Of a DNA stretch of 64,000 nt, positions 35,431 through 62,520 are shown in pieces. Within the stretch, counting starts at the first letter, position 1. Every line of letters starts with the position of its first letter. The stretch comes from Balanoglossus misakiensis (taxonomy: Eukaryota; Animalia; Hemichordata): contig CM082577.2 in the NCBI GenBank assembly GCA_040954595.2, positions 11,813,654-11,877,653 on the forward strand, in the 5' to 3' direction. The notes below the pieces were generated by a model, which was not told the origin of the DNA, made no database searches, and worked only from the letters and a program-made list of their open reading frames with translations. The position numbers and the translations under genes were made by a program.

Positions 35431-35434
35431 TGTA

Positions 35435-40939: not shown

Positions 40940-42330
40940 GTTACCTGAAATTCAGAAGGTAGTTGATCTTCTTTAAAAAAAGCCTTGTCAAATGTTACAT
41001 TCCTCAGAGCCAAATGGGTGGCACTGTTCTTCTTTAGGTAGTGTCTTTCAGTGTCACCAGTATTGGCTAGTGGTCCATGGTCGCATTCCATGGAATTACT
41101 GTTGCCATAATTGACATGCCAAGTGTGCTCAGCTATGACATGATGAATCACACCACCCCATATCTCCTGCACAAATAAGAAATTGTAAAAGAAACTATAT
41201 CAAATTCAAATCAAAATCAGAGGTATTAAAATAAATGAATTTCTGACATAGAAGCAAACAAGTTGAAAACAACTGCATAACTGCACAATTTCAATACTGT
41301 CATGGCTATTTTTACAGGTAGTTTGACCCCCACCTTATGATAGGATGATCAGTTAGTAACATTGTCTCTAAAGTTAAATAAATAAAAGACTGATTACAAG
41401 ATGGAAAGCTGGTAAAATCTTTATCTTCTTGGATAAGTTCTTGGCAGCATGCCAAATGTTGAATGTGTGAATGCTTGATGTCTGGGTGATCATTTCCTAT
41501 AAGATTGGCATTTAAAGTAAGTCTTGAAAAACATCAACCACGGCTTCTCGACGACCACCAATATTCACAAAGTTCCGACTTCAGTCACAATCTTCAAACC
41601 AATGAACCGGTAGGCACCACACAAGACAGGCAAATTACTATTAGGTTGGATCGTCCTCTTTTGAGCCTGTGTACAGCAGATGTGTCATTCAAATAAATGT
41701 TTTTGTATTTTCTTCACTGTGAACCCAATTGCAAAGCCATTGCCTGTGCAAACCAAAAACTTTAGTTATGGACATCAATTGCAAGAACACTATAACTGAA
41801 ATCTTAAGGGTTAAAGGCCGAGCCACTTGAGAAGAACAATCTCTCACTTGATGATATTAACAAAAATTGACTGTTCTCCAGCGAAGTGATAAGCGTAAAT
41901 GTTTCCGTAATAACGCTGTGTCTAATGGACGAGACCCTGTCTCAAAATTGGGGAAATGGTGGTTTCTTCCAAACCTATCCAGCATCGTGACAAGGGTGGT
42001 GCCTCTTGTTTTTCGATTGGAATTGTAGACGATGTTGTACGGGCGTTTCACACACTGCATCTTTGTAAGACAACTGACATCTTTTGGCATCATGAAAATG
42101 ACCAATTATGTTACCTGTAATTCAGAATGTAGTTGATCTTCTTTAAAAAAGCCTTGTCAAATGTTACATTCCTCAGAGCCAAATGGGTGGCACTGTTCTT
42201 CTTTAGGTAGTGTCTTTCAGTGTCACCAGTATCGGCAAGTGGTCCATGGTCGCATTCCATGGAAGTACTGTTGCCATAATTGACATGCCAAGTGTGCTCA
42301 TCTACGACGTGATGTATTACACCACCACAA
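40940..42330 (-). mobile_element. Kolobok-type transposase exons, with one exon duplicated (~40945-41170 and ~42115-42330)
   Basis: WGGVIHHV..EHTW..CDHGPL..YLKKNSATHLALRNVTFDKAFLKKI; DHPDIKHS-like exon at ~41420-41750. Confidence 0.7.
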
Positions 42331-42759
42331 TAATGTAGGCACGACACAAGACAGGCAAATTACCGTAAGGTTGGAACCAAACTCCACAGCAAGGCTACTA
42401 GACCTGAGTATCAATTCAATGTGGCAACGCGTGGCTTTTATAGGAGCAAAACTAATCAATTCACTGACACCTGGTCACGCTTATATGTAAATAAAGTAAG
42501 CAACAGATCTAGAGGTACATCTGGCCTCGAACAAACCTCATCACAGTTAACGTACGCTCCGAATGCACAATGCTGTCATGGTGGTTGACATGTATACCTT
42601 CTGGCAGAAAATCATGAAAGTGTCGTTGAACCAGCAGCTAATGACGACAAAACAATGCCTAAAATCACCATGGTGTTATCATCATGTGCTGATGGTTTTA
42701 AGAGGGTGTCTAACACTATGTCATGATTGGACAGGTCTGCTGTTGTAAGAGGTTCTACT

Positions 42760-43330
42760 GGTGCTGTTCTGAGTGTTTTTGTGTGTGTGGAAAGCATCTT
42801 GCAGCCTCTGTTGACAGATGTTTTGTATTTCTTGCTTCCTACAATGCAACTTCTTCCGTTCTTTGCGAGCTTGTATTGAAGCTGCTGCCACCAGCTCAGA
42901 CTTCTCATCATCACTTTTGGCTTCTAACCACACAGTCTTATTCATGGTGAACAATGATGTACGCCTCAGAGACTAGAGTGGTGATGTTTGGTTTGACTGT
43001 GAGGAGGTGATCTAAATACGCAAACATGCGCTCTGTTTGTTTGTTGTGTTGAGGTACGCTCTGGGTGGATTTTGTCATGCTGGGTGTTACATTAACATAC
43101 TTTCCTGCTGGAAGAAAATCACTGAAATGGCGCTGAACCAGTTCAGACGGACAAAACAATAACTTATTTAAATCATCATGTGGTGATGGTTTTAGGAGGG
43201 TCTAACACTATGTCATGATTGACTGGAACTGAATCAAACATGATACACTTTCCTTGTACAAAATCATCAAGGTTTAATGGAAGCAGCCTGACAGAAGTAA
43301 ATGAGAGGTCTAGTATAGTATGTATGCACA
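42760..43330 (-). mobile_element. DDE transposase C-terminal fragment, superfamily uncertain
   Basis: DFLPAGKY..TQSVPQHNKQTERMFAYLDHLLTVKPN..EAYI / MFTMNKTVWL. Confidence 0.5.
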
Positions 43331-44210
43331 TCAGTTATGGCTATGTCGATTCTATAACTTTCCATGCAATGAATGGGTCCAGGAACTGTAGCTTGTCCAG
43401 CAGCCAACTCCTTCTCTTGGTTGTGTTCCATGCGCTCCCACTACTCTGGGGTTTCTTTTGCCTTGACGTAGTTGTTTCTGAGATATCGCAATTTTATTTT
43501 AACCCATTCAGCATTCAGCTGAAAAATAACACCGTTTTATCAAGTCAAACACAATAACTACTGTGATCAATACAAATCACAATTTTACTCAGAATCAAAG
43601 TACTGAATGCCTGTCCATGAAGACTGTATTTTAGCAGCAGACATATTTTTTTCAAGTAACCCCCCCCCCCCCTACAATAACTACCCCGGTATGTGAAATG
43701 CAGTATTTTAAAATCGAGACATTGGTTTAGCTGGTGGGCCTTTGTAGGTGTCTCCACTTTTTATTTCGTCAGCAACATCGTACTCTTAACTTTTACCTGT
43801 TTTTCCCGGTCATGATCCAATTTCTTCGAGTGCATGCTCCTTTTTGTCCCTGTTTTTAAAATCAGGTGAACGTACGTTGAACAGTAAAGTAATACTCGCC
43901 CTACAGGGGGTAAATACCGTACTACTTGTGAGTGCACCGACTGCGTGTACCGGTATAATACCTACACTAAGCGACCGATCCTTGCCTTAACCACTAACTT
44001 AACAACTATCTTAATACTAGAGAAATGTGAGACAAAACTGTCAGCGATGACGGACTTTAACATTTCCTGGCAGCTTGCAATGGTCTTCAAGTTCATATTT
44101 ATCTCTCACAGTATAAAGACGGCATTTTTTGTTTTTGTTTAATATTTTGACATGAGACTGAACGCCTGCTGGCGACACAAATACACGCATGCAAGAATAA
44201 ATCAGTCCAT

Positions 44211-45144
44211 TTGACGGTCTCTACACACCCTCTGAAGTCCCGGAGATGGATCTGTTGGTGTTCGTTACAGTGGCGCGTCATGGTGAGAAGAGTCCAGGCC
44301 GCCGTCTGCCTGTCGTATCTGTCTTCGGAGGTCCCTCTGACGGTGACTACCACCGGCTTCCTGCCCTGGTTCATACAGAGCAATTCTGTGAAGCTTTGTC
44401 CTGGGCTTCCCAGGTCGAGGGATCTTCCGTTCTCTCCAGGCCAATGTCTCCCAGCGCAGCCACGCCCGGGTGTTGTAAGAGTTCGCCGACGGTCTGGCGT
44501 TGGTCCTTGGTCATGTATGGTGCCACTCGTGGGTTAACTCCAAGGGCTATTGGAAAATCTTTTTCCCCCGGCAGCGGGTCCGGGTATCGATCTGGCTCGG
44601 AGAATACCTGTAGGCCTCCGAGGAGTCGGATCCGATAGTCTGGAAGGACACCAACATCGTAGTCAGTGAGGTCTTGTGGAGTTATTGGAGCGTCCTCCAC
44701 CCTACATTTCTCTGCGCAAGCTTGAGGGTAGAAACAGGCATCGATTCCCCCGGGTGTTGATGGGTCCCGCGCTACTGTTTCCGCCCTCGTCATTTCTGGT
44801 GGCTGTGTCCGGGTTGATGATGGTCTCCGGTGAGGCCGGATTTCCCGGAACTCTTCTTCACGCGCTTGCGACACCTATCTGAGCAGCACGCTCAGAATGC
44901 GCCAGTGGATGAGGATCGCTGGTGTGGTGGGGGAGCTCAGCCGGAACTTGTACGGTACCTCCCATCCCTGGAAAACGCACAGGCGTTTCATCATTACCAT
45001 ACTTTCGGGTGAACACAAGGATTCAGACGGGATCCGTCCAGGTCCGCCCCTGCGAATATAGAAGTCCAGTAAGTCAGAGATCTCCTTCCCCGGACCACAC
45101 AGCACCGGAAACTTGGACCAAAGTTCCACTAATTTGTCTTCCAA
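44211..45144 (-). pseudogene. TatD-fold protein copy A (internal stop, frameshift, 3'-truncated)
   Basis: IALGVNP, AALGDIGLE, PVVVTVRG, IHLRDF; upstream FRLSSPTTPAILIHWR motif. Confidence 0.75.
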
Positions 45145-45224
45145 GACCCCCGTAACTATGGAACAGAGGCCCTCATTAACAAACCCGAGTGATGTGAGAG
45201 ATGACTAAAAGTATGACTGCTCTT

Positions 45225-45600
45225 ACCTAATAAATGTTCTTGGCCATGATGCACATATACATGAACGGACAACATGTCTTAGGCAGCATGCCCAGTCTTC
45301 TGTTCTGTCGACGATTTCTCGTGGATCCGTCTTAGGATTGGCATATAAAATGTCCATAGGCCACCACACCGGTTTGGTCTCTGGTTTGCTTCACTTGCAT
45401 TTGTTATCCTTTAAAAATGGAACCAATGATCGGAGCGTGTGCAGGTTGACGTGCGAAAGTGATCCACCGCTGTATTCAGGTCGCCTGAGGTCAGGAAGTT
45501 CAATACTCTTGGCACGTGATGAGGTTTCTTCTTGGGACGCGTCCAGATCGGTATGCAGAGAGTGTGATATTATCGACAGAATGTGCTGACTTATTGATGC
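45225..45600 (-). pseudogene. NRF1/EWG-like DNA-binding domain fragment
   Basis: Hand translation: LSHVNLHTLRSLVPFL...KPETKPVWWPMDILYANPKTDPRE....EDWACCLRHVVRSC. Confidence 0.65.
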
Positions 45601-46074
45601 GGTGAGGTGCTGAGATCTGCTCTTCTCTTTGCTCTTCTATCTGGTTTTGTCATAATTATTTCAATATGTTTCGAACGAATTACGGCGAAAACACGCATAT
45701 ATAGTTGTCTGACTTCGTTGGCTGGTTGACACTGTGGGTCTCTTCAGTTAAGGTTTATTAACTAAAATGTTTAAAATTCAAGCAGAGTTGGCAGTTCGGT
45801 ATTTAATTAGGGATCAACAGGTACCGAGATACCATATACGCAACGTGAAACATCAGCAGTTTATTGATATATGACTCTGACCTCGTTAACACTGAGGTCA
45901 CGTATATATGAATTGAGCAAAGTGGCGGGAACAAAATTAGTTACAATGTAAACTCTCTATCTCTAGTGTTCTTTCCGCTATAGAAATCTAATTCACTGAA
46001 GAAATGACATAAATGTTCTGTGTTTCGTGAAATATGTGATAATTTACATAACATTTGCATATAATTTAAAATAA

Positions 46075-46306
46075 CGGGTGGTGGTTGTGAGGCGGTTAGG
46101 ATAGTGTCTACATTTTGGGTCACCGAAGTTCTCAGCAGCTCAGTTCCATGGATGAGGTATTTTCTTTTGCTGGTGATTGGGTCAAGGAAAGATGTGATGA
46201 CTGCTACTTCAAAGGCCGTTTTTTTTTCTGAAATCTGATCACGTTGTTGCACAGCATCTGCCAGGCTATTATATTCCACACACATTAAATTACTCATTGT
46301 GGTCAA
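46075..46306 (-). pseudogene. N-terminal part of an NRF1-like paralog
   Basis: KKTAFEVAVITSFLDPITSKRKYLIHGTE matches KKTSLEVATVTTFVDRLTGERKFIVHGSE of ORF 58262. Confidence 0.6.
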
Positions 46307-46453
46307 TTCTTAATTCCTATTTTATTTCTATACAATAGGATCCATGAAAGTACAAAGCAATACAATCAATGAAAATAATTCAGTGTACACATGGCAATTG
46401 AAACTGGTTGAAGACAGAGACCTTAACATTAACATCAAACTTTATGGTGTTTT

Positions 46454-46615
46454 TCAATAATCTAACTTCCTGTTCTTCATCTTGGCCCAGACAGCCGCAG
46501 CCTTGGACACATCAAACTTCATTATGTCTTCTCCTTCCACACTAATGAAGAGCAACTGCTTCAGTGTCCTTTCAGCAAGTCTGTTTGCGAGAGATGTTTT
46601 AATCCTGCCAATTAT
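46454..46615 (-). mobile_element. hAT transposase C-terminal (dimerisation) fragment; copy at ~51583-51745
   Basis: RIKTSLANRLAERTLKQLLFISVEGEDIMKFDVSKAAAVWAKMKNRKL (ZNF862-like). Confidence 0.75.
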
Positions 46616-46719
46616 ATACAGTGCGTATACTTGTAACCAGCTTCCGTGCCTCCACACTAATGCCTTTACCAATCTCTTTAGGGCAGCAGGGACAGTGCCT
46701 CCATTTCTCTTTCTTCTGA

Positions 46720-47218
46720 CCGGCGTTTTACTGTGGATCTTCCTTGGGGCCGTCAGTCCGTTCAACCATATCCTGTCCCCCTGCTTCAGAGAGACAGGGG
46801 AGATCCCTGGTACCGCCAAGCTGGGCTGCGGCTCTGAAGAGCTGGGAGGACCCCACCAACCGGACGCGACTTCTTGGGTCTCGTTGTCCTTGCCACTCTC
46901 TATGGTGCGCCGTATGGGTAGATCGGGTTGTGTTAGCAGGCGGATGTCCCTGCACATTCCTTGCTCGGCATACTCAACCGGCATCGCCATCGCCTTTTGG
47001 GGGCGTGGGGGTTGGGGGTTCGTGTGTGGCATGTTTTCGACAATCCAGGGTATCGGGAACATGACGTCCGCTTCTCTTTGTATGTTGAAGATCCACCCCC
47101 ACTTTCCCTTGGATTTCGCCAGGGAGTATTGGTCCAAGATTGCCTCTTCGGCTTCTCCCCTCGGCGCCATCATGACGCCATGTACCGTATTACCTCTCGG
47201 GGGTCGAGGTGACGGCAT
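46720..47218 (-). CDS. Unknown ORF X, divergent from the TatD-like gene; copies at ~50760-50950 and ~51850-52340
   Basis: MMAPRGEAEEAILDQYSLAKSKGKWGWIFNIQREADVMFPIPWIVENM is conserved, with many synonymous changes, in the 50760 paralog. Confidence 0.5.
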
Positions 47219-47241
47219 GCCCGAGTGGCTCTTCTCACGTC

Positions 47242-48375
47242 ATGGTAATGATGAACCGCTGATGTGTCTTCCAAGGGTGGGAAATGGCAAACCGATTCTG
47301 ACTCAGCACCCCCAACACGCCGGCAATTCTAATTCATTGGCGGGTCCTCAGCATACTGCTGAGGTGGATACCCCAATCACGGAGGGATGAGTTCCGAGAA
47401 ATCCAACCCCGCATGAGATCGTCATCACACCGGAGGGAGGAGAGTCGGGGCTATCTGAGAGAGACAACACAGGAATGGCAACCAGAGAGGACGGGGGCGG
47501 AAGCAGTCGCACGGAATCCATCGACGCAAGAAAGGAGAGAGGACGCGCCAGGGGGTTTTAATGCATTTTTTAACCCCCAAGCGTGCGCGGAGGAGTGCCG
47601 AGTGGAAGACGCGCCCACTACCATAGATGACCTCACTGACTACGATGTTGATGTCCCCCCCGATAACCGCATATGACTCCTCGGGGGGTCTCCAAGTTTT
47701 TTCCGAACCAGATCGCTACCCGGACCCACTGCCGGGGGAGGAGGGATTCCCACTGGCCATCGGCGTGAACCCCCGAGTAGCGCCTAACATCACCGCGACC
47801 AGCGCCAGACAGTCGGCGAACTTCTACAACACCCGGACGTGGCCGCGCTGGGAGACATTGGCCTGGAGCGAACGGAAGATCCCTCGACCTGGGAAGCCCA
47901 GGACAAAGTATTCACAGAATTGCTCTGTATGAACCAGGGGAGGAAGCTGGTGGTAGTCACCGCCCGGGGAACCACCGAAGACAGATACGACAGGCAGACG
48001 GCGGCCTGGACTCTTCTTACCATGACGCGCCACTGTAACCAACACCAACAGATCCATCTCCGGGACTTCAGAGGGTGTCTACAGACCATGGGGGACTGGC
48101 GGCGGTATTTTCCGGACACCTATTTTGGATTTTCGGCGGCCGTCCGCCAATTCGACGAACGGCAGGTGGAGGCGTTGCAGGCCATCCCGGAGGACAGAAT
48201 CCTGAAGGAGACGGAATCACCCGGCGGACGTGTGTGGGAGACACAACTAATGAACACCCCAGCCTTCCTGGAAGACGTGGCGCTGGAGGTGGCGAGGCTG
48301 CGTTGGAACGTCCACCCGACAGCTGCTGGCGCAGACGTCCGAGAACGCCCGCTGTCTGTACAGGCCATAGACTGA
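47242..48375 (+). pseudogene. TatD-fold protein copy B (frameshifted)
   Basis: ORFs 47413, 47627 and 47839 together give the copy D peptide. Confidence 0.8.
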
Positions 48376-49034
48376 ATGAGCAGTGAGATTGCAAGCTGCC
48401 AGGAAATGTTAAAGTCCGTCATCGCTGACAGTTTTGTCTCACATTTCTCTAGTATTAAGATAGTTGTTAAGTTAGTGGTTAATGCAAGCATCGGTCGCTT
48501 AGTGTAGATATTATACACGCGGTCGGTGCACTCACAAGTACCGTAGTACGGTATTTTCCCCCTGTAGGGCGAGTATTACTTTACTGTTCAACATACGTTC
48601 ACCCGATTTTAAAAACAAGGACAAAAAGGAGCATGCACTCAAAGAAATTGGATCATGACCGGGAAAAACAGGTAAAAGTTAAGTGTACGATGTTGCTGAC
48701 GAAATAAAAAGAGGAGAGACCTACAAAGGCCTGCCAGCTAAACCAATGTCTCGATTTTAAAATACTGCATTTCACATACCGGGGTAGTTATTGTAGGGGG
48801 TGGGGGGGTACTTGAAAAAAAAATGTCTGCTGCTAAAATACAGTCAGCAGTGTCTTCATGAACAGACATTCAGTACTCGTCTGCGCGTGTATAATATCTA
48901 CGCTAAACGACCGATGCTTGCCTTAACCACTAACTTAACAACTATCTTAATACTAGAGAAATGTGAGACAAAACTGTCAGCGATGACGGACTTTAACATT
49001 CCCTGGCGGTTTACAACCTCGCTGCTCGTTCCGT

Positions 49035-50150
49035 CTATGGCCTGTACAGACGGCGGGGTTTCTCTGCTGTCTGTGCCAGCAGCTGCCGGGTGGACGTTCC
49101 TCTAAGTCTTGCCACCTCCAACGCCACGTCTCCCAGGAAGGCTAGAGTGTTCATGTGTTGCGCTTCACATACGCGCTCGCCGGGCGACTCAGTCTCGACC
49201 AGGACTTTGTCTTCAGGGATGGCCTGCAATGCCTCGAATTGCCGGACGGCCGCCGAGAATCCGAAATAGGTATCCGGAAAATACCGCCGCCAGTCCCCCA
49301 TGGTCTCTACGCACCCTCTGAAATCCCGGAGATGGATCTGTTGGTGTTCGTTACAGTGGCGCGTCATGGGAAGAAGAGTCCAGGCCGCCGTCTGCCTGTC
49401 ATATCTGTCTTCGGTGGTCCCTTTGACGGTGACTACCACCGGCTTCCTCCCCTGGTTCATACAGAGCAATTCTGTGAATACTTTGTCCTGGGCTTCCCAT
49501 GTCGAGGGATCTTCGGTTCTCTCCAGGCCGATGTCTCCCAGCGCGGCCACGTCCGGGTGTTGTAAGAGTTCGCCGACCGTGTGGCGCTGGTCGTCGGTTC
49601 GGTAAGGCGCTACCCGGTGGTTCACGCCGATGGCCAGTGGGAATCCCTCCTCCCCCGGCAGTGGGTCCGGGTATCGATCTGGTTCGGAGAAAACTTGGAG
49701 ACCCCCGAGGAGTCGTATGCGGTAATCGGGGGGGGGGGACACCAACATCATAGTCAGTGAGGTCATGTATGGTGGTGGGCGCGTCTTCCACTCAGCACTC
49801 CTCCGCGCACGCTTGGGGGTTAAAGAATACATCGAAACCCCCTGGCGCGTCCTCTCTCCTTCCCTGCGTCGATGGATTCCGTTCGACTTCCTCTGCCCCC
49901 ATCCTCTCTGGTTGCCGTTCCTGTGCTGTCTCTCTCAGATAGCCCCGACTCTCCTCCCTCCGGTGTGATGACGATCTCATGCGGGGTTGGATTTCTCGGA
50001 ACTCGTCCCTCCGTGATTGGGGTACCCACCTCAGCAGTATGCTGAGGACCCGCCAATGAATAAGAATTGCCGTCGTGTTGGGGGTGCTGAGTCGGAATCG
50101 GTTTGGCACTTCCCACCCTTGGAGGACACATAAGCGCTTCATCATTACCA
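49035..50150 (-). pseudogene. TatD-fold protein copy C (frameshifted)
   Basis: ORFs 49792..50181 and 49035..49832. Confidence 0.8.
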
Positions 50151-52366
50151 TGGCCAAATACAAATCAATACAATCAATCAATCAAAAGAAGCAATACCAA
50201 TCAATGAAAATAATTCAGTTTACACATGGCAATTGAAACTGGATGAAGCAATATTGACCACATCTTTCTCAGTTAGTCTTTTCTGACCTTTCGATATCAC
50301 TGGTCCACTTGTATTGTTAACTGCTTCTGTATCATTTTTGCGTTTTGACTTCTTACTGCAAGTGGTGACTTTGTTTTTGTTTACCTATCTTCCAAAGCAG
50401 TAGTAGACTTTCTTTTACAGGAAATGTGCTCTCCTTTACTCTCATTTTCTTTTGAAAGTTCATCCATGAACATCCGGAACTTTCTCGCTGCGCCTCTCTT
50501 CCCACTTTTTCCGGCTTCCTCCAAATCGTTCTTACCTTCTGTCAGTAACATTTCCACTCGCTCTGATTTTGGAGTACCGTTTACGGTACATGTCAAATTT
50601 TTTTTATATCTTGCAAGTTTTTCTGTGCAAGACTGGAATGAAAACATGTCACGGTACATGTAAGTAAAAGAGAAATAAAAGAGGGTAATCCCCATCAATA
50701 TAACTACAAATGTGTTTCGGTCACAATGGATTTTAGAATTTCAATAGCTCATGCACCACTTAGGGGCTTGGGGGCCGGTGGTTCCGCGTTGGGTTGACGT
50801 GCGACATGTTTTGAACAATCCACGGTATAGGGAACATGACATCCGCCTCTCTCTGTATTTGGAAAATCCATCCCCAGTTTCCCTTGGATTTCGCCACGGA
50901 GTATTGGTCTAAGAGTGCCTCTTGGGCTTCTCTTCTCGGTGCCATCATAATTCCGTGGATTACATCCCGAGGACCAAGTGGCTCTTTTCATGTCATCTAT
51001 GGTCAACTTAATTGGGCATTGGTCTGGGCATGTTCTCGCACGGTCACCAATATGCCTGTAGTTACCACTCTCATGGTCGCTAACCATTATCCCTCTCTCC
51101 CACTGAGATGGACGAAAAACATGACGAGGGGTCTGTCTCCTGAACGAAACCTGTGAAGGCAACAATTGATTATTGCCTGACTCTTACTTCCACTACCCTT
51201 ACAGCTGTGTGAGCGGGTAGTCACCTCTGCCAATGAAACATTCACAGGAAAGACAGGTGCTGTAACCTCACATGTAGGGATATCCGATTTCAACCTCTCA
51301 TGATTAAGTCTGTCAATAAGTCTGACCTGAGCATTTTGGTAGCCTGTCACACTTTCAACTGCCAATTCTGTACTGAGTGTTTGGTTAGTTTTCAACCTAT
51401 TGAATTGATGCAATCCATATGATAAGTAGATGAGATGCATTTGTGCTTTGGTGAATTTAGACAATAGGATCCATGACAGTACAAAGCAATACAATCAATG
51501 AAAATAATTCAGTGTACACATGGCAATTGAAACTGGTTGAAGACAGAGACCTTAACATTAACATCAAAGTTTATGGTGTTTGTCAACAATGTAACTTCCT
51601 GTTCTTCATCTTGCCCCAGACATCCGCAGCCTTGGACACATCAAACTTCATTATGTCTTCTCCTTCCACACTAATGAAGAGCAACTGCCTCAGTGTCCTT
51701 TCAGCAAGTCTGTTTGCGAGAGATGTTTTAATCCTGCCAATTATATACAGTGTGTATACTTGTAACCAGCTTCCGTGCCTCCACACTAATGCCTTTACCA
51801 ATCTCTTTAGGGCAGCAGGGACAGTGCCTCCATTTCTCTTTCTTCTGACCGGCGTATTACTGTGGATCTTCCTTGGGGCCTTCAGTCCGCTCAACCATAT
51901 CCTGTCCCCCTGCTTCAGAGAGACAGGGGAGATCCCTGGTTCCGCCGAGCTGGGCTGCGGCTCTGAAGAGCTGGGAGGACCCCACCAACCGGATGCGACT
52001 TCTTGGGTCTCGTTGTCCTTGCCACTCTCTATGGTGCGCCGTATGGGTAGATCGGGTTGTGTTAGCAGGCGGATGTCCCTGCACATTCCTTGCTCGGCAT
52101 ACTCAACCGGCATCGCCATCGCCTTTTGGGGGCGTGGGGGTTGGGGGTTCGTGTGTGGCATGTTTTCGACAATCCAGGGTATCGGGAACATGACGTCCGC
52201 TTCTCTTTGTATGTTGAAGATCCACCCCCCAGTTTCCCTTGGATTTCGCCAGGGAGTATTGGTCCAAGATTGCCTCTTTGGCTTCTCCCCTCGGCACCAT
52301 CATGACGCCATGTATTACCTCTCGGGGGTCGAGGTGACGGCATGCCCGAGTGGCTCTTCTCACGTC

Positions 52367-53497
52367 ATGGTAATAATGAAGCGCTTATGTGTCTTCCAAG
52401 GGTGGGAAGTGCCAAACCGATTCAAACTCAGCACCCCCAACACGCCGGCAATTCTAATTCATTGGCAGGTCCTCAGCATACTGCTGAGGTGGGTACCCCA
52501 ATCACGGAGGGACGAGTTCCGAGAAATCCAACCCCGCATGAGATCGTCATCGCACCAGAGGGAGGAGAGTCGGGGCTATCTGAGAGAACGACAGGAACGG
52601 CAACCAGAGAGGATGGGGGCAGAGGAAGTCGCCCGGGCTCCATCGACGCAGGAGAGGAGCGAGGACACGCCAGGGGGTTTTGATGCATTTTTTAACCCCC
52701 AAGCGTGCGCGGAGGAGTGCCGAGTGGAAGACGCGCCCACCACCATAGATGACCTCACTGACTACGATGTTGGTGTCCTTCCAGACTATCGGATCCGACT
52801 CCTCGGAGGCCTACAGGTATTCTCCGAGCCAGATCGATACCCGGACCCGCTGCCGGGGGAAAAAGATTTTCCAATAGCCCTTGGAGTTAACCCACGAGTG
52901 GCACCATACATGACCAAGGACCAACGCCAGACCGTCGGCGAACTCTTACAACACCCGGACGTGGCCGCGCTGGGAGACATCGGCCTGGAGCGAACGGAAG
53001 ATCCCTCGACCTGGGAAGCCCAGGACAAAGTATTCACAGAATTGCTCTGCATGAACCGGGGGAGGAAGCCGGTGGTAGTCACCGTCAGAGGGATCACCGC
53101 AGATAGATACGACAGGGAGACGGCAGCCTGGACTCTTCTCACCATGACGCGCCACTGTGATGAACGCCAACAGATCCATCTCCGGGATTTCAGAGGGTGC
53201 GTAGAAACCATGGGGGACTGGCGGCGGTATTTTCGGGACACCTATTTTGGATTTTCGGCAGCCGTCCGCCAGTTCGACGAACGGCAGGTGGAGGCAATGC
53301 AGGCCATCCCGGAGGACAGAATCCTGGTGGAGACGGAATCACCCGGCGGACGTGTGTGGGAAACACTGAGAATGAACACCCCAGCCTTCCTGGGAGACGT
53401 GGCGCTGGAGGTGGCAAGGCTGCGTTGGAACGTCCACCCGACAGCTGCTGGCGCAGACGTCCGAGAACGCCCGCTGTCTGTACAGGCCCTAGACTGA
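52367..53497 (+). CDS. TatD-fold protein copy D: uninterrupted ~376-aa frame with non-canonical active-site residues
   Basis: ATG at 52367 is in frame with ORF 51473..53497; GVNP, ALGDIGLE, PVVVTVR, IHLRDF, YFGFS, IPEDRILVETESP. Confidence 0.8.
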   Translation: MVIMKRLCVFQGWEVPNRFKLSTPNTPAILIHWQVLSILLRWVPQSRRDEFREIQPRMRSSSHQREESRGYLRERQERQPERMGAEEVARAPSTQERSEDTPGGFDAFFNPQACAEECRVEDAPTTIDDLTDYDVGVLPDYRIRLLGGLQVFSEPDRYPDPLPGEKDFPIALGVNPRVAPYMTKDQRQTVGELLQHPDVAALGDIGLERTEDPSTWEAQDKVFTELLCMNRGRKPVVVTVRGITADRYDRETAAWTLLTMTRHCDERQQIHLRDFRGCVETMGDWRRYFRDTYFGFSAAVRQFDERQVEAMQAIPEDRILVETESPGGRVWETLRMNTPAFLGDVALEVARLRWNVHPTAAGADVRERPLSVQALD

Positions 53498-54087
53498 ATG
53501 AGCAGTGAGATTGCAAGCTGCCAGGAAATGTTAAAGTCCGTCATCGCTGACAGTTTTGTCTCACATTTCTCTAGTAGTATTACGATAGTTGTTAAGTTAG
53601 TGGTTAAGGCATGCATCGGTCGCTTAGTGTAGGTATTATACATGCGGTCGGTGCACTCACAAGTAGTACGGTATTTTCCCGGCCCCTGTAGGGCGAGTCA
53701 TGGATCATGACTGGGAAAAACAGGTAAAAGTTAAGAGTACGATGTTGCTGACGAAATAAAAAGTGGAGACAGTCCACAAAGGCCCACCAGCTAAACCAAT
53801 ATCTCGATTTTAAAATACTGCATTTCACATGCCGGGGTAGTTATTGAAGGGGGGGGGGGGGGGGGTACTTGAAAAAAAAATATGTCTGCTGCTAAAATAC
53901 AGTCAGCAATGTCTTCATGAACAGACATTCAGTACTCGTCTGCGCGTGTATAATACCTACACTAAACGACCGATGCTTGCCTTAACCACTAACTTAACAA
54001 CTATTGTAATACTAGAGAAATGTGAGACAAAACTGTCAGCGATGACAGATTTTACATTCCCTGGCGGTTTACAACCTCGCTGCTCGT

Positions 54088-54470
54088 TCAGTCTATGGCC
54101 TGTACAGACGGCGGGCGTTCTCTGCTGTCTGTGCCAGCAGCTGTCGGGTGGACGTTTCTCTGAGCCTCGCCACTTCCAACGCCACGTCTCCCAGGAAGGC
54201 TGGGGTATTTATGTGTTGCGTTTCCCACACGCGCTCGCCCGGGCGATTCGGTCTCGACCAGGACTTTATCTTCAGGGATGGCCTGCAATGCCTCCACCTG
54301 CCGTTCGTCGAATTGCCGGACGGCCGCCGAGAATCCGAAGTAGGTATCCGGAAAATACCGCCGCCAGTCCCCCATGGTCTCTACGCACCCTCTGAAATCC
54401 CGGAGATGGATCTGTTGGTGTTCGTTACAGTGGCGCGTCGGATGGACGTTTCTCTGAGCCTCGCCACTTC
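54088..54470 (-). pseudogene. TatD-fold protein copy E (3' part only)
   Basis: TRHCNEHQQIHLRDF..KVLVETESP. Confidence 0.8.
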
Positions 54471-55081
54471 CAACACATACATTATAACAATACAATACTT
54501 CTTTAGATCACGCTTCCAAATGGACATTTTTTCCAATCGATCTTTGGTGCACTCGCTCAAAATGTTCACGAAAACTCTTCCCACATCTTCGCCGAAAGAC
54601 CAAAATGTCAAACTCATGGTTGGTGGTTGGCAAAATAAGTTTGCAGCACAGAGGACGCTCGAAACAAAAGTTGTTCACTTTCGAATTGATGTGATAATTA
54701 TGAGTTTTGCTCACTACACTGCTGCGATGCGACATGAGTCGATAACAATGCAGGGGTGGGTGGTTAGTTGATGCGTTCGTATTTGCTTCATTTTTTTCGC
54801 CGCTAACTGGGGGAATCTTGCCATCTGGGTCGTATCAGCGACTTCATACTAAATGAGGACACGTCAACTCACCTAATATTGCCGCCGATACAGACGGAAG
54901 GTATATTTCTGTCGTAGATTGTGGACCAATTCTTCTGGAATTCGAAGAGAACGATAGTGTTTCTTGGTATCAGGAATCAGTCTGGCGTCCCTCGCCTTCA
55001 TCCGGAGATCCTGGGGCTGAGTATGGGATCCCCGGGCTGACCCCTAGGTCATTAGGTGATTCATCTGGGCGTTGGGGGGCT

Positions 55082-56340
55082 TCAAACCCCCTGATACAAC
55101 ATCTGTGGGGTAGGGTTTACTGCCGGAGGAATGCACGCAGCGTCGCTGAAAACAGGTCCCAGTAGTTGTTTCGCGAGCATTGTCGCAGCTTGTATAAGTT
55201 CCTCATCCGATATTTCATCAAGTTGCTCAAGATTAAAATTCAAATCAAAATCTGACTCTAGCCTTTCAGACATGGTGGCCGGCTGCATTTTGAGCTCTTC
55301 TTGATGTTTCAAAATTTGCACGAGCTGATGTTGTATCGGTGACTCGCCTCGTGTAGTCGTCGACTCGATCGGGAAGTAGAAGTAGTTCTCGATAGTATTC
55401 GGTAGTTGTGATTGATGCGCTAGAACAGCAAGGCTGATAGACTGGTGGCTGGCTGGAAGTTGGCTGATAGACTGGTGGCTGGAGAATATGGCTGGTTGGT
55501 TGATGGTGTTGTGACGTTTCCAATGATGGGGCCATGCTTATGTTAAATGAAGCGACTGATATGTCCATGGGGATGGGGTGACTGCAGGTGTGAATCACTG
55601 GCTGGAACTCTGGCTGCTCGGGTGTAGATGTCCTGAAAACTAAAACAAAGAAACAAATATTAACATTGACATCTTGGCAGACCCTGGAGCGATCTCTGCT
55701 TAACATTAAACTGAGTGGCCGGTTTAGCTTATTAAAAATATTATTTTTATTATTATAAACTTTATTTCGGACTCATGGTCCATATTACAATGTACATAGT
55801 ACATATGTAATCAAATCAGAGGTTTGTTGGTCAAGGGTTTATAAAATGTTCACTCACCAATTTCACTAGATGAATCGCCATAGGCCATGAAAAGTTGATT
55901 CATGGCATCCGGAATATCATGTACATCTACCGTTACCAGTTGCTCGAGGGGCTCATCAGAACTCATCAGAATATTTGTGTCACCTAATAAAAAAAAAAAT
56001 ACAAAAAATGTGTTATACTATGTTTGACAAATGTGTGTTGAACAAACTGCATAACAAATACTATTTCAATTATCATAATAATTTCATAAATTATGTATTA
56101 CACTCACCAGTTTTTTCAGATACATTGTAAAATGCATAGCACGCCCTGATGGTTTTCTTCATTATTTCAGTCCATCCACAGCCACCTGCAGTCCCCGGTT
56201 TGCTCAGATTGACGTAGGGTACATCAGCCGGCCACCAGTCTGGTTTCTTGTCATCCTTCCCCCAAAGTGGATGACCGCGCTTCTCCGTGTTGAGAACTAA
56301 CTTGGGAATCAGGTTGCGTAAACGCTTATCATTCAGCTTT
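55082..56340 (-). pseudogene. Spliced NRF1/EWG-like gene fragment: DNA-binding exon followed by Q/P/S-rich and acidic exons
   Basis: ~56107-56340 reads KLNDKRLRNLIPKLVLNTEKRGHPLWGKDDKKPDWWPADVPYVNL..WTEIMKKTIRACY. GT-AG bounded exons follow at ~55858-55983 and below 55632. Confidence 0.7.
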
Positions 56341-58261
56341 GAAACAGATCCTAGGAGATAGTATTTATGCTTGTTCTAGGGAGCCTATTTTTTGCTCAGT
56401 TTATGAAGTCAATTCTGCTGCCACATTTTTGAAAACTGTAAAAGTTTCAACATTCTTCCATTACGTCCAGAGATATGACCAAAGAGTTGACACAAACAAG
56501 CTTGTGATTGTGTTCATTCCCTGAATGTTTGAAAAAAAAGGCAGCCGAATTGACCCCTCACAATCCTGCTTAGTTTACCTCGAATCAGACGTCCCTATTT
56601 ATGTGTGTGATGCATTGTAATCGTACAGTCTGATTCGAGACGGTGTACGTGTTTACCATATTACACTTGTCTGCACATTACTTGGAAACTTTCACCACAA
56701 AAGAAACAGCATGTAGGTAGATGGTTTGTAATATTGCCGGCCTGAGGTAGATAAGTTTTTCACCGATTCAGATTTAGATATGCACAGTTGACAATAGTAT
56801 GCAAATCCTCATCTTGGCCCCCTACTCCGATGGAAATGTAAACTTTAAACATGCAGACAGTAAATAAGGAAACAAGTACATCAGCAGAAATAAACTGAGC
56901 TTACCTTGGTGTATGTAGATCAAAGTACACAGCCATGATGTAAACTGTAATGTCACTTTATTCAAAATTATCAATTCGTATCTGTGAAGAAAATCAGTAA
57001 AATATTGCTATTAATTGTAAACTCCCATAAATGTAGATAAATAGAAACATTGTATTAACCCTATTAATAAAGCGACAAAACCAGATAATTAATTGAAAAC
57101 TGAATAATATCATAGAAAGTAGAAAGCAGACATTTAGTGGTTAAACAATTTAAGGCAATTCTAACGTTAACGAAGCCTATTCTTCTCCAAGAAATGCCCT
57201 TCTTCTTCTTTCGTCCCTCTCCATCCAATATTCCCATTTCCCTTCCCTCCTATCTTCTAAGCATCGCTTGTAATATGCATGGTAACTATAGTATAGCTGA
57301 TTTTCAATGGGTGACCGTATACCTTTAACATGAATTCAACTCCATAAAAGTGAAGAAGCATGAGTGTCCTATCGGCAAATGCAAAAAAAAAAAAAAAAAA
57401 ATACTTGTGTTTATTAGAAAAAATATTTTAATCCAACCACCAGCAAATTCAAATTTTATGTTTTTTAGTTTGAAATAGAATGGTTTCTATGGTTGAAATA
57501 AAGGGTTTCTATGGTATATCCCTGTTGAGTATTTGACAAATGTATTTAATATTGCATGTATTAATTATGGTGATTTAGATGAAAATATTGACAAAATCAA
57601 ATGTGGTACTAACCATCATTAAAGTCTTATTAAGCATGCCTTCCAGATTTACATCCCTAATTTGGAAGTACGGTCTCCACAGCAGTTTGTTAAGTTCCTT
57701 TATTGGAATCCCTCTCGTGCTTTGACTTCTTAGGAGCTGTATAGATAAAAAAGACGAATGAACCATGTATGACTCGAACATAAAGTATGCAATTATGAAC
57801 AAAGGCATACTATGCAGGTCTCGGCTCCAGACGACCGCCGCTCCATACAAATCGACAACTTTACCGTATTTTTGGTAGATTAGGGAAAATGTCTACAGAC
57901 ATATCTGAAAGTTGAAAATTTAAATACAGAATACATCTCGATTTTAGAAATATGGTATTATGCAAGGAGTATTTTTAAATTTCAAATTCCAGTTTGTGAT
58001 GGGAAACGAAGGGTTAAAATTGGATTGAAGAAAAAAAGTATCTACTACATACTCTCTGTCGTATCTTGAGGCGTGGGTTCTTCCTCTTCTCGGAAATCAC
58101 CTGTATGGGGAGTTTAAGTACAAATTGTTAAAATCCAGAAAGAAACGAGCACTTAATTAATCCAAACTTGCAAACCATTTATTCTGCATTTATTTAAAAG
58201 CGTATCTGTTAAAAGCAAAAGTGACATAGTAAAACGGATATCAACTTACCTGTCAAAAGCA

Positions 58262-58816
58262 TCATTTTATAGAAAGAACAGCATGATGCCGCTGCACTTC
58301 CCTTCTAAGCATCTTGGTCCACTGGCCACGGGGTCCTTGTTTAAGTTCTGCGGGCGTCTCCGACGGGTCGCTGAACGGCACATCACTCGGCCGCCACTCC
58401 GGAGCGTTGTCCTGCTGGCCCCAGAGGGGGCGTGAACGGTCAACGGTCTTCCGGATGATGTCCGGCACTAGCTTGCGTAGCCCTTCATAAGCCATTACGC
58501 TTAGGGTACAACCCCATAGCGATAGCGCGACACAGTCTGGAAGGCGTTTGGGGTTGTCACTGTCACTGGATGGTGTTGAGGCTGTTGCTGTGGACACCGG
58601 CGTCGTGTTGCTGTTGGCGATGATGGTTGGCATGGATGCAGTGATCGATGATTGCAGACCTTCGCTGCCGTGAACGATGAACTTTCGCTCACCGGTCAAA
58701 CGATCTACAAAAGTTGTCACTGTGGCGACCTCGAGAGACGTCTTCTTCGAGAACATGTCGACCTGGCTCGACAAAATTCTCCAGCTACTGGTCTGCTTCT
58801 TGTTTAAACTCTCCAT
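58262..58816 (-). CDS. NRF1/EWG/P3A2-like DNA-binding domain protein, divergent
   Basis: LRKLVPDIIRKTVDRSRPLWGQQDNAPEWRPSDVPFSD..QWTKMLR aligns by eye with NRF1 LRAFIPEMLKYSTGRGKPGWGKESCKPIWWPEDIPWAN..SWTQALR (recalled sequence). Confidence 0.75.
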   Translation of the reverse strand: MESLNKKQTSSWRILSSQVDMFSKKTSLEVATVTTFVDRLTGERKFIVHGSEGLQSSITASMPTIIANSNTTPVSTATASTPSSDSDNPKRLPDCVALSLWGCTLSVMAYEGLRKLVPDIIRKTVDRSRPLWGQQDNAPEWRPSDVPFSDPSETPAELKQGPRGQWTKMLRREVQRHHAVLSIK

Positions 58817-60099
58817 TGTGATGCGTGTATTACTCAGAATTACGATGTAATGACATGAACTAGAAAGTTTCCCATATTTATATAGATTGCAACAATGAAA
58901 GGTGACAAACATGATCTTGACCGCACTTTCGCGATTGCCGACAATGCCGCATACACATTCACACTTTCATAATGACCTTTTTGGTAACATTATCATAGAG
59001 TGTGATTGACAGGATCGGCCCCTTTGACTCTATTAGGAGGTGGATATATCAGATGCACCGACCGTTTATTCCAAGTGCCGCTAACCGATTAATAATAATT
59101 ATAAACGTGTGAATGGGAGTGGTCGGTACCTTTGGATCATGCTTAGCGAAAGGCGTCGGCAGTATAGTGGGGCAGTTAACCAAAAAATCGTGCACTTTGG
59201 GTTAAAAGCATGAAACTTGGTATACTTATGCATTGACCCATGGCGGACATTTTCCAATATGGATCCCAAAATACACCGCCCTCTAGTGGCCAGAAACTGA
59301 CATTTACACTTTTTCCCCCATTGATGGAACGTTTTGGTCAAGTTTAACACTCAAACACAGGAAAGTTGGTTGTAAAACATGATTGCTACCATACATGCCT
59401 CTGTATATTATCCTAATTTTGGAACTCTTATATTGCCCTGTTCAATAATGGCAAACTTTGTGTGCATAGTATCGCCAAAATTACAATTAAATATCAAAAT
59501 TTGTAAACAGATGTTTTGGTTGTCATGAACATAGAATGCTATGAGGTTATCACTTGATGTCATATGTTCGTTGTTAGCGATCTGTGCTGTACAGAAGCTA
59601 TTTTCACTTATGATGCTGCTCTCATGAAAGTACTGCCGCAGAATACACTGCCTATGGTACATATCAGATCATAGTACATTATCATTGTCCAAACTTTAGA
59701 TGAAACTGGTTCAAACACTAACAGTACTAAAAATTATAGGCAATTAATCCACCTATCTGATAAGCTTTGTGTAGATCTCCATTATGTACTGACAGATGAT
59801 CTGTATGCTCTACCACTAGCACTAGTGCTGCATTTAGAATTAATGCATATCGTAATGTCTCTGTCAGACATTATGAGTGTGTTCCGGGCATATTCTAGAA
59901 CAAAAGATGAAGACATTTTAAGTGATTTGTCCTGTAGCGTTGAAATGAAGTTTTGTTGAGTGAATGGAATTCTGGACTTTGCAACAAGTTCTTTCCTGAG
60001 TTCAATCCACTTCTTCTTCTCTAGAAATATTCTCATTATTCCTGCATTCGCTCTACCAGGATCCATAACTTTTCTGTCAGAATTCGCGGTATTTAAATT

Positions 60100-60388
60100 C
60101 AGTAGGAGACGTGAATAATTAACTAAAAATAGTCAGCAGCGCGTCCCTGGAGATTTCAATCACTGATAGGGGCAAAAGTTCAAATGGTCACATGATATTT
60201 TCTTGGCAGGAAATGAGAGCCTAACATATGTTTAATACGTCATTAGAAAAAAGATAACACGTATTTCACAAGAAACCGTTACGTATCCCACACTTTTTGA
60301 ATCGCCCGATGTTCTGGAATCTTCGGACGCTTTGGCAGCATGCACCCATGTAGGACGTCTGAGGGCGCTCTGGGCTGCACAGGGTTAA
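60100..60388 (-). mobile_element. piggyBac-type terminus (TTAA|CCCTGTGCAGCCC on the minus strand)
   Basis: CACAGGG|TTAA at ~60378-60388; inner boundary unknown. Confidence 0.5.
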
Positions 60389-60769
60389 CTACTAACTTAA
60401 CTACTAACTAGCACTAAGGAAATGTGAGACTGAAAGCAGATATCAAAAACTCTCAATAAACGGTTATCTATTGCAAGGATATAACTTATGTGTATGTTAG
60501 ATTCGGTTTCAGTTCAGTCTGATCAGCTCTCAGCCCGCGAGACGGCATGGTTTCCAGTTCCGCCCCACGCTTCAGCCGGCCTCATCGATTGGTGCCGCCC
60601 CTGTCAGTCAGGTCCCAATGCTCCGCCCTCCTAGGTTCTGGCTGGCCGTCGCCCTGGGCAACCAACTTCGGCTGTCAGTCATCTGGGGACCAGAATGTAG
60701 TTCCACTGCGAATAAAAAAGTTCCCACTTCCCATCAGACGAGCCCTGAATTTAAAATATGACACCAATG

Positions 60770-61200
60770 TGCACGTAAAGTACATTTTGTGAGAGGTTTT
60801 TCAACTTTTTGATTTCGGCATACTGTCAAGTGTGTTTTGACACGTTGTACGTGATCCTTGAATTCAGCGACTTGCTTTTTGAACGTGTCAATAAAGTCCC
60901 ACACTGTCTGAGTCGATTATTCACATGACGCTCTTACTTTTGTCTTTATCGTTAACTACAACCCTTTTCCATTGACTGGCTTTTTGTGGGAGTTTCTCTG
61001 CAAATCTGTCGATGTCATGTTTTCAATTTCTTGTAGAAACGATACAGGGTTGACTGGTACAGTGACTTCCCGCCGACGAGTTTTCATTTGCAAAGGCATG
61101 TTTTGATGTTTTGTACACAGACAGGTATGACGGGTATATTCTTTTATTCATGCAATGGGACATCAGTTGCAGCCCAATATTGTTTTGGGTGATACGTATA
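60770..61200 (-). mobile_element. Sola2-like transposase fragment
   Basis: Hand translation: RHTCLCTKHQNMPLQMK ... DFIDTFKKQVAEFKDHVQRVKT. Confidence 0.45.
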
Positions 61201-61257
61201 ATTGCAAGCCTGGGAATCAAGCGACGGACTGTGGAACATAAATGTAACTTCTATGGA

Positions 61258-61521
61258 TTAGCTGTCAAACCTCAGGCTTTGTTCGCTTATGATGGCATTT
61301 AGAGGAGATATGATGATAATCGTCACTGCCCTGTTCTCTCCAATGTAGGGAAGGGACTCAAATATAAGTGTTTTCCCGTAGACTTTTGGCAGGACACCAA
61401 TGCAATCACCATTCAACGATGCCTTCAGACAGTCTAGTAGTTGCTTTGGCTTGTATCCATAGTATGGTACAGATTGTTTCTTATTAAGGTTTGCCAAAAG
61501 CATATTTAGTTTTGCATACAA
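61258..61521 (-). pseudogene. RecQ-like helicase N-terminus (Q motif, Walker A, motif Ia), AcademH-like
   Basis: KPKQLLDCL..DCIGVLPKVYGKTLIFESLP..IIISPLNAIISEQ. Confidence 0.7.
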
Positions 61522-61649
61522 ACTTCAACTTTGAAGTTAGCGCCATGTTTTTTACTTTTTGCCTCCAGCCGTTTCTGTGTTGGGAATACCTTTCTGCCAA
61601 TCACACTGCTCGTATTTATTAACCTCCCAGCAGAATAACAAACCACACA

Positions 61650-62520
61650 ATTGCGCCACATGTCAGTGTATTCCAAGCGATGGTCAGGTAGTTGCCTAAA
61701 ACAGTATGTTATTTTCGTGTTGCCTTACGGTAACATCGACAGCATTGACCTCGCTTGGATTTTGACTATCCACCCCCAAACCCTGTAGCTGTCGTACCAG
61801 CAACATCGCTTTGGTCTTTGTAATTGTGGATTGTCAGGGTATTTACTCCGCAAATATTGGAAAAGAACATAGGAATCACCATATCAATGAAATGATAAAA
61901 TAAAGTTTTCCACCTCTTTTAGTCGATCTTAAAACATTATACTTCGAAATTACTTGATCAGAATAGCCTTCGGTTGTCGAACAAATACACGCCAAAACCT
62001 CCCATTATCTTTCCGGCGTCTTCTGACAAATCTGTGATCATCTCCACGATGGATTGTGGACATGACACACACTGGTCTATTGTCTTTCCATTGCTTTGTT
62101 AAGACTTGCCCATCCCTAAAATATCGCATCCCACCCTGTTGTGTACTCCTCTCCCACTGTGGATCTTTGAACAAAAAAGGAAACCCCCGCCTCGTCTTCA
62201 AAACAGTCCCACAAGATAGTGTCCCATGATCATAAGTGCATTTAGCAAATTAGGTGGTGTATAGTAATTATCAAAATAAACCTGGTATCCCTGCGCATTA
62301 ATTCTTTCACCTAATCTCATAATAACATCATAACCCAACTCATTCTCAGCTGTCATCAATAGGACATCAGCGCGATGAATAAAGAAAAACTTACCTTGCA
62401 CCACAACGATTGACGGTTTATCGGTTCATCTCTGCCGGATTCTTCTGACGAGTCAGTTGAAAACTCATCGAAAACATCATCGGAGTCACTGCTACTTGAA
62501 CTTTCACGGTCACTCATCAT
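61650..62520 (-). mobile_element. Internally deleted piggyBac transposase
   Basis: Acidic N-terminus; LGYDVIMRL..GYQVYFDNYYT; KQWKDNRPVCVMSTIH..VRQP.AI. Confidence 0.85.

Follow-up and report, generated by a model that had tools for sequence, protein, structure and literature searches.

Three copies of a gene for an NRF1-type DNA-binding protein, designated A, B and C, lie on the minus strand of a 64,000-nucleotide stretch of the genome of the hemichordate Balanoglossus misakiensis (assembly GCA_040954595.2, contig CM082577.2, positions 11,813,654 to 11,877,653), which is referred to here as the window and in whose numbering all coordinates are given. NRF1 is usually regarded as a conserved single-copy regulator. 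An earlier note on this DNA, made by inspection of the sequence, had described four divergent NRF1/EWG-like domains at 45225-45600, 46075-46306, 56107-56340 and 58262-58816. All four segments are present at these positions, on the minus strand and with similarities far beyond chance, but they make up three gene copies and not four domains. The segment 46075-46306 is the dimerisation, N-terminal half of copy A and 45225-45600 its DNA-binding, C-terminal half, with about 470 bp of intron or insertion between them; copy C (58816-58250) carries both halves in a single exon, whereas in copy B (56350-56108) only the DNA-binding half is present. The parts of the three copies, including candidate exons and a possible promoter element, are listed below.

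45226..45501, minus strand: DNA-binding half of copy A, broken (PF10491 E-value 1.5e-6)
46085..46297, minus strand: dimerisation half of copy A, its ATG (46297-46295) aligned to residue 1 of the relatives
55266..55639, minus strand: candidate last exon b3 of copy B, rich in Q, P, S and T, with a stop codon at 55266-55268
55858..55983, minus strand: candidate exon b2 of copy B, beginning with D after ...KTG, phase 1 at entry and exit
56108..56350, minus strand: exon b1 of copy B, DNA-binding half, open (PF10491 E-value 3.8e-14)
58053..58100, minus strand: candidate second exon of copy C, with AG acceptor and GT donor, phase 1 at entry and exit
58250..58816, minus strand: first coding exon of copy C, ATG at 58816, both halves (PF10491 E-value 2e-10)
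58877..58884, minus strand: TATATAAA, lying 61-68 nt upstream of the copy C ATG and possibly an element of a core promoter

The NRF1-type domain and its base-reading residues

The Pfam family PF10491 (Nrf1_DNA-bind), which includes human NRF1 (structures 8K4L and 8K3D), Drosophila Erect wing and sea-urchin P3A2, has a gathering score of 23.5 bits. A first Pfam scan, a check proposed in the earlier note, covered nine open reading frames (ORFs), three of which matched this family, one in each copy and all above the gathering score: the copy C ORF 58262-58966 (E-value 2e-10, 41.2 bits, profile positions 33-197 of 213), the copy B ORF 56091-56375 (E-value 3.8e-14, 53.3 bits, positions 126-204) and the copy A ORF 45223-45390 (E-value 1.5e-6, 28.6 bits, positions 156-200). 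The segment 45941-46309, which contains 46075-46306 of copy A, gave no Pfam match when scanned alone; it matches a profile of acorn-worm relatives (E-value 1.4e-9 among 3490 ORF pieces) and the related protein P0003 (tblastn E-value 4e-9; numbers with the prefix P denote matched database proteins, discussed below), and aligns with the N-terminal half of copy C at 38% identity. With a profile of the window pieces, the human NRF1 chains 8k4l_A and 8k3d_A were matched at an E-value of 4e-17 among 177,635 PDB sequences, and a search of 2072 six-frame ORF pieces of the window with such a profile found no further NRF1-like copy (next best E-value 0.32). The motifs quoted in the earlier note were found as written, as KPVWWPMDIL and WACCLR in copy A, KPDWWPADVP and WTEIMK in copy B, and APEWRPSDVP and WTKMLR in copy C. 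The three copies are mutually 22-38% identical, and their scores against PF10491 are low (29-53 bits, as against 228-349 bits in the four canonical-type proteins with listed scores).

An AlphaFold2 model of copy C, for which the input alignment held 46 sequences, has a mean predicted local distance difference test score of 85.3 and a predicted template modelling (TM) score of 0.54. Its N-terminal part consists of a helix (6-26), two strands (31-37 and 44-50) and a second helix (52-70), followed by a low-confidence linker (71-100) and the helices 110-125, 156-159 and 165-183. In a Foldseek search of the PDB with this model, human NRF1 chain 8k4l_B ranked first (E-value 1.6e-6, probability 1.00, 176 columns), and the high root-mean-square deviation (rmsd) of the match fits a flexible linker between two domains; 8k3d_A ranked third (TM score 0.60 on the target, rmsd 2.5 over 78 columns). 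The MADS domains of SRF and MEF2 were among the lower-ranked matches, and a likeness of the dimerisation domain to these MADS domains has been reported for NRF1 itself (PMC10810270). The two-module layout of dimerisation domain, linker and helical DNA-binding domain is thus found in copy C by the model and in copy A by sequence, and is not found in copy B. Copies A, B and C belong to the NRF1-type domain family, and the NRF1/EWG-like nature attributed to them earlier is borne out by the profile, by the sequence match to solved NRF1 structures and by the predicted fold.

The window-type proteins resemble NRF1 in that a flexible linker joins a MADS-like dimerisation domain to a helical DNA-binding domain, in which a long loop bears P.WWP..P. 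Unlike NRF1, they start at helix alpha-3; the region that has the alpha-1 and alpha-2 helices and the nuclear localisation signal is absent, the start codons of copies A and C corresponding to residue 1 of the relatives and profile positions 1-32 being unmatched. Short tails rich in Q, P, S and T are present instead of the activation region. A further difference concerns the residues that read the DNA. Human NRF1 dimerises via residues 54-172 (Liu et al. 2023, PMC10810270), while its residues 201-284 read two TGCGC half-sites, with the bases contacted by R206, N242 and R244 (PMC10810270). In the alignment, the equivalent of R206 is retained in copies A, B and C and in the relatives, and that of N242 in copies A and B and in the hemichordate relatives, copy C having D at this position. 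The equivalent of R244 is replaced by K in copy A and by S in copies B and C, and is C, S or K in all relatives except one. Since this residue is replaced across the family, the half-site would be expected to differ from the TGCGC of NRF1, and binding of the copies to GCGCATGCGC would not be expected from their base-reading residues. Like NRF1, intact members of the family would dimerise via their N-terminal domain and recognise a DNA site made up of two parts. Canonical NRF1 sites (GCGCNTGCGC, with at most one mismatch) are not enriched in the window, where 5 were counted against 2.9 expected and 22 of 100 shuffled sequences reached 5.

Relatives of the window copies

An exhaustive profile search of 1.84 billion representative proteins identified 291 proteins at E-values up to 1e-3, of which 90 lie at or below 1e-10 and one at or below 1e-30; 30 representatives were looked up by name. 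The six best matches (E-values 1e-36 to 4e-18) include four proteins of Ptychodera flava (XP_070537888; XP_070541359, annotated as 'Ewg-like'; XP_070542580; XP_070532876), one of Glandiceps talaboti (LOC144436394) and one other record. A fifth P. flava protein, XP_070548960 (P0025, annotated as 'pinin-like'), has a lower rank, and two further loci are found in G. talaboti (LOC144452195 and LOC144450923). P. flava and G. talaboti are both hemichordates of the enteropneust group, and the best matches by themselves, at 40-50% identity, would place the source of the DNA probably among the enteropneusts. Each of the five clusters from P. flava has one member on one contig, the five large contigs being different, P0004 comprises three isoforms of one locus, and P0156 of G. 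talaboti comprises six member sequences over three contigs. With at least five paralogs annotated in P. flava, at least three loci in G. talaboti and several members in amphioxus, the earlier proposal of an expanded family holds. In a published survey, genes with an Nrf1 domain number three in Branchiostoma floridae, one in human, none or one in six tunicates and none in Caenorhabditis elegans (PMC8122590, Table 1).

The relatives begin at the dimerisation domain (M.SL.KKQ..SW...), as copies A and C do, and their tails are short or rich in Q, P, S and T. The P. flava and G. talaboti proteins share with the window copies this start, the exon end ...CY..Y....LTG|D and the replaced R244, and some members of their type lack the dimerisation half, like copy B, occurring as separate annotated proteins (P0008 and P0135). 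Their identity to the window copies is, however, only 40-50%, and their gene models are intact and spread over different large contigs; the window copies, in contrast, are crowded into 14 kb and partly broken. The closest P. flava protein differs from copy to copy, being P0006 for A (48-50% identity), P0007 or P0008 for B (47-49%) and P0003 for C (41%); the corresponding P. flava loci are XP_070541359 for copy A, XP_070542580 and XP_070532876 for copy B and XP_070537888 for copy C. This pattern, together with the low mutual identity of the copies, suggests old paralogs and not recent tandem duplicates.

Phylogenetic trees were inferred with two programs. The FastTree analysis comprised 134 rows (131 matches with at least 60 matched profile positions and the three window copies, with X at the stop of copy A), and placed the window copies in a group of 19 rows with a Shimodaira-Hasegawa-like (SH-like) support of 88; this group lies inside a 22-row side (support 17) of the midpoint root, opposite 112 canonical-type rows. 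A quick IQ-TREE analysis under LG+C20 comprised 63 rows, namely 20 from the non-canonical side and 43 hand-picked across the tree from the remaining 112, and recovered a clade of 22 rows in which the window copies stand together with rows from hemichordates and amphioxus (SH-like approximate likelihood ratio support 93), apart from 38 canonical-type rows. Within it, copies B and C group with P0007, P0008, P0003, P0004 and P0135 (support 89), and copy A stands beside P0006 without resolution. Constraining A, B and C to a single clade costs 28.2 log-likelihood units (p-AU 0.038 in the approximately unbiased test). The window copies accordingly fall outside the canonical NRF1 clade in a tree that holds no named canonical ortholog from a hemichordate. 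The pieces are not exons of one canonical ortholog, a reading that the earlier note had named as fatal to its own proposal, for the three copies overlap at profile positions of about 156-197 and lie in a clade separate from canonical NRF1.

Amphioxus proteins annotated as 'nuclear respiratory factor 1-like' (XP_019625441, KAI8516328 and CAH1271518) fall in the same non-canonical clade as the window copies. They are more distant, with no equivalent of N242 and with FWD for WWP; their position in this clade indicates that extra NRF1-type genes exist in invertebrate deuterostomes. A non-canonical NRF1-like family is common to hemichordates and amphioxus, and the databases hold only uncharacterised automatic gene models of it. 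No description of this family was found in those portions of the literature that the search covered; a transcription-factor catalogue was among the matches, and none of the papers listed on NRF1 and its relatives dealt with such paralogs. A word-index protein search returned five proteins with the family alignment and no match for copy C or for the TatD-like ORF described below, and a scan of metagenome contigs with the family alignment gave eight pattern matches, none of which was confirmed.

Condition of the three copies

Copy A is a pseudogene. Its dimerisation half matches residues 1-71 of P0004 (E-value 5e-7) and residues 24-63 of P0003 (50% identity, E-value 4e-9), and its DNA-binding half shares 48% identity with P0006 across 86 amino acids, stop and gap included. 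The latter half is interrupted by an in-frame TGA at 45391-45393, and about five residues are gone at the R..P.WG position of the family, with loss of the conserved W motif.

The open frame of copy C extends over 184 codons to a TGA at 58262-58264 and is 41% identical to P0003 over 179 amino acids, starting at residue 1 (tblastn). From about 58298 onwards a different frame gives ...CC.FY....LLTG and runs as far as a GT donor (58249-58248), and the equivalent exon of the relatives ends in ...CY..Y....LTG, the next exon beginning with D. As the LLTG frame matches the exon end of the relatives, a frameshift near 58296-58303 is likely. The second W of the otherwise invariant WWP is changed to R, and the position of NRF1 N242 has changed from N to D. 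The candidate second exon (58053..58100) would read GDFREEEEPTPQDTTE following the LLTG frame; it has no significant similarity to the tails of the relatives (E-values 0.4-0.6). Further downstream motifs picked by eye (a central one at 57646-57584 and a C-terminal one at 57233-57201) were rejected, as they fell outside the top 8 of 3490 ORF pieces searched with motif profiles. Copy C is probably dead or dying.

Copy B keeps the nearly invariant residues of the family (LR, LWG, P.WWP, VPY.N, W and CY), and is 49% identical to P0007 over 76 amino acids and 42% identical to P0008 over 102 (tblastn). Its exon b1 lies between an AG acceptor at 56352-56351 (phase 1) and a GT donor at 56107-56106 after ...KTG, with in-frame stops directly upstream; no dimerisation half was detected in the 1.9 kb upstream, as far as copy C. 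The start of the candidate exon b2 mirrors the LTG|D junction of the family, and b1, b2 and b3 together give an open frame of 246 codons in which every intron is of phase 1, provided that the acceptor at 55639 is used. The tail so obtained has no significant similarity to the family (its score of 5.5 bits is exceeded among 200 shuffled sequences, which reach 8.6 bits; blastp E-value 1.3). On this sequence evidence, copy B may be either a working member with a DNA-binding half only or what forms the 3' part of a longer gene, the first exon having escaped detection. The region 55082-55772 contains two overlapping long open frames of 151 and 168 codons on the same strand in different frames, in a stretch rich in Q, P, S and T that has a 15-bp tandem repeat at 55432-55481; just one of the two frames fits the spliced model of copy B.

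Genomic surroundings and origin of the cluster

The window has a G+C content of 36-54% and is rich in remnants of mobile elements. Besides the first scan, 159 ORFs were scanned against Pfam, comprising 11 and 57 ORFs of at least 90 amino acids from the whole window and 91 of 121 ORFs of 45-89 amino acids; ORFs below 90 amino acids were scanned in 42000-46400 and 54400-64000 only, and the 30 omitted ones overlap NRF1-like or TatD-like pieces already scanned. Scans for tRNA genes and Rfam families found nothing in the window. The neighbouring features are as follows.

6900-7430, minus strand: C2H2 remnant
21458-22666, minus strand: Mutator-like transposase remnant
24060-24578, minus strand: leucine-rich repeat (LRR) remnant
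25150-35950, minus-strand ORFs: Myb_DNA-bind_4 and Tc5-type helix-turn-helix (HTH) remnants in tandem units (over the window, three Myb_DNA-bind_4 and two Tc5 HTH matches)
36920-37207, minus strand: RecQ_Zn_bind remnant
43622..54439, both strands: GC-rich (48-54%) TatD-like block, flanking copy A on both sides and separating it from copies B and C, itself no part of the NRF1-like genes
43622-45000, minus strand: lone TatD-like copy
46329-48574, plus strand: TatD-like copy
48649-50152, minus strand: TatD-like copy
51458-53698, plus strand: TatD-like copy
53701-54439, minus strand: truncated TatD-like copy
61953-62425, minus strand: PiggyBac-type DDE transposase remnant
63040-63192, minus strand: XPG_I remnant
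63214-63564, minus strand: SH3 remnant

The TatD-like element is about 2.25 kb long, its copies being 84-94% identical to one another (93% between 46329-48574 and 51458-53698), and each plus-strand copy stands tail-to-tail with a minus-strand copy (48649-50152 and 53701-54439, respectively) in a palindromic pair. Its ORF of 376 codons (52367-53494, plus strand) matches Pfam TatD_DNase at profile positions 57-233 only and may lack the N-terminal metal-binding part. The 5' part of the element has long ORFs on both strands, such as 46454-47239 (minus strand, 261 amino acids), which matches no Pfam family. Copy A is located in a 1.3-kb spacer between two TatD-like copies. A conserved adjacency of NRF1-like and TatD-like genes, which the earlier note had suggested checking, was not found: the arrangement at copy A is not homologous to that at copy B. 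No relationship was seen between the spacers 45000-46330 and 50150-51460, whose global alignment scores no better than shuffled sequences do, and the TatD-like copy beside copy B is truncated, being cut at a different point (54439). A fusion of the two genes was also rejected, since the TatD-like ORF has its own start and no related protein carries a TatD domain.

Other features of the surroundings were observed. The Mutator-like remnant at 21458-22666 (minus strand) is an open frame of 402 codons that matches the transposase family PF20700 with an E-value of 7e-26. In the region 25150-35950 a unit of 3.3-3.7 kb is repeated in tandem three times at 98-100% identity; the unit holds a Myb_DNA-bind_4 ORF and a Tc5-type HTH ORF on the minus strand along with an internal 257-bp repeat array. 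The XPG_I nuclease fragment (E-value 1e-15) lies 22 bp from the SH3 fragment on the same strand, an unnatural pairing, and a tandem duplication of 563 bp covers the SH3 part (63200-63997).

The three same-strand copies probably represent, though with considerable room for doubt, a partly decayed array of old host paralogs that has been broken by later repeat insertions. On this reading copy A is dead, copy C probably dead or dying and copy B open. The decay is indicated by the stop and the deletion in copy A and by the W-to-R and N-to-D changes and the early stop in copy C. Features of a host gene are the phase 1 introns at the LTG|D junction of the family and the presence of the NCBI relatives as gene models with isoforms. 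Several points weigh against this reading. The P. flava paralogs lie on five different contigs, as against the tight cluster seen here, which is not the pattern expected of old genes in a simple tandem array; the end branches of the window copies are long (1.5-2.3); and the rejection of a single clade for A, B and C is marginal (p 0.038). The downstream exons of copies B and C have no significant similarity support, and the match of the alternative frame in copy C, taken alone, is weak (3.9 bits); the frameshift may instead be a one-base assembly error. A possible frameshift in copy A near 45260-45280, ahead of a GT donor at about 45226, likewise depends on a weak match of 3.8 bits in the alternative frame.

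The NRF1-like gene could alternatively have been carried or captured by a mobile element, for instance as the DNA-binding partner of a DNA transposon, in which case the copies would be separate insertions of diverged lineages. The PIF/Harbinger elements, in which a Myb-like second gene encodes a DNA-binding accessory protein beside the transposase, provide an analogy for such cargo only; the search of the present window found neither a transposase partner nor termini nor repeated copies. In favour of this reading, Mutator-like, Tc5/pogo HTH, Myb_DNA-bind_4 and PiggyBac-type DDE remnants are densely packed in the window, none of the copies A, B and C has another of them as its closest relative, their degree of damage differs, the P. 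flava paralogs are dispersed over separate contigs, and short NRF1-domain proteins occur as lineage-specific sets in arthropods and molluscs (a lead from Atlas clusters). Nevertheless, a search of the window for terminal repeats (inverted, direct or long) and for repeated flanks beside the three copies found none, the regions 45000-46328 and 54440-60000 have no second copy there, and Pfam scans of the flanking ORFs detected no domain of a transposase (KDZ and CxC included), integrase or reverse transcriptase adjoining the NRF1-like copies, the nearest transposase remnant being the PiggyBac-type one 3 kb from copy C. Among the related proteins, PF10491 is present in 17 of 18 and in 133 of 134, as their sole Pfam domain, and a mobile-element or TatD domain was found in 0 of these 152 (18 + 134) at thresholds of 1e-3 and 1e-4, although repeat masking before annotation could hide element-borne copies. 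Most of the annotated relatives that were looked up are represented by a single sequence on a single contig, and some have isoforms, while P0156 has six sequences over three contigs; 291 matches in 1.84 billion representatives are few for a transposon gene. The description of the copies in the earlier note as probably element-borne is therefore unsupported, and carriage by a mobile element appears unlikely. The bolder form of this idea, in which an as yet unrecognised lineage of DNA transposons in invertebrate deuterostomes would have a gene for an NRF1-type dimerising protein as its sequence-specific partner, and three diverged lineages of it would have been trapped in this one-strand repeat graveyard, is quite unlikely; if true, it would explain the scattered, fast-evolving 'paralogs' of a supposedly single-copy factor. 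Transposon cargo, if that reading were true, would also be of greater importance, since it would add a novel type of accessory protein to those of transposons and could supply new transcription factors.

It is improbable that copies C and B form one transcription unit, be it a gene in which the NRF1-type DNA-binding module occurs twice or one in which copy B serves as an alternative 3' cassette spliced to upstream exons. The exon of copy B does start at a phase 1 AG acceptor without a start codon of its own, the copy C exon in its LLTG frame and the candidate exon 2 also end in phase 1, so that joining would keep the frame, and database matches with several stretches exist, such as P0073 with five. 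The main frame of copy C, however, stops at 58262, before the donor, and the existence of DNA-binding-only relatives (P0008 and P0135) makes a DNA-binding-only gene equally possible. The remark in the earlier note on the shared strand was confirmed, every Pfam-recognisable remnant except the TatD-like copies being on the minus strand (about nine or more against none outside the TatD-like block, with tandem copies taken once). This bias may reflect a one-strand source of small RNAs, a large host gene or chance. The orientation of the remnants outside the TatD-like block is all that recommends the whole stretch as a one-strand source locus of the Piwi-interacting RNA type, with the NRF1-like copies as trapped fragments directing it at the family. 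Several of the remnants may be host exons and not transposon pieces, and a same-strand tandem gene array accounts for the NRF1-like copies without it; this origin, too, has a low probability.

The cluster in the window is a real but fairly ordinary relic of a gene family, and transposon cargo is not shown. For the annotation of this region, the outcome is that, among repeats, one copy is clearly a pseudogene, a second is likely to be one, and the third is open but has the DNA-binding half only. For the family, it means that acorn worms and amphioxus have a separate, fast-evolving set of genes with the dimerisation-plus-DNA-binding module of NRF1, which, given the changed base-reading residue in the hemichordate and amphioxus set, probably reads other sites.

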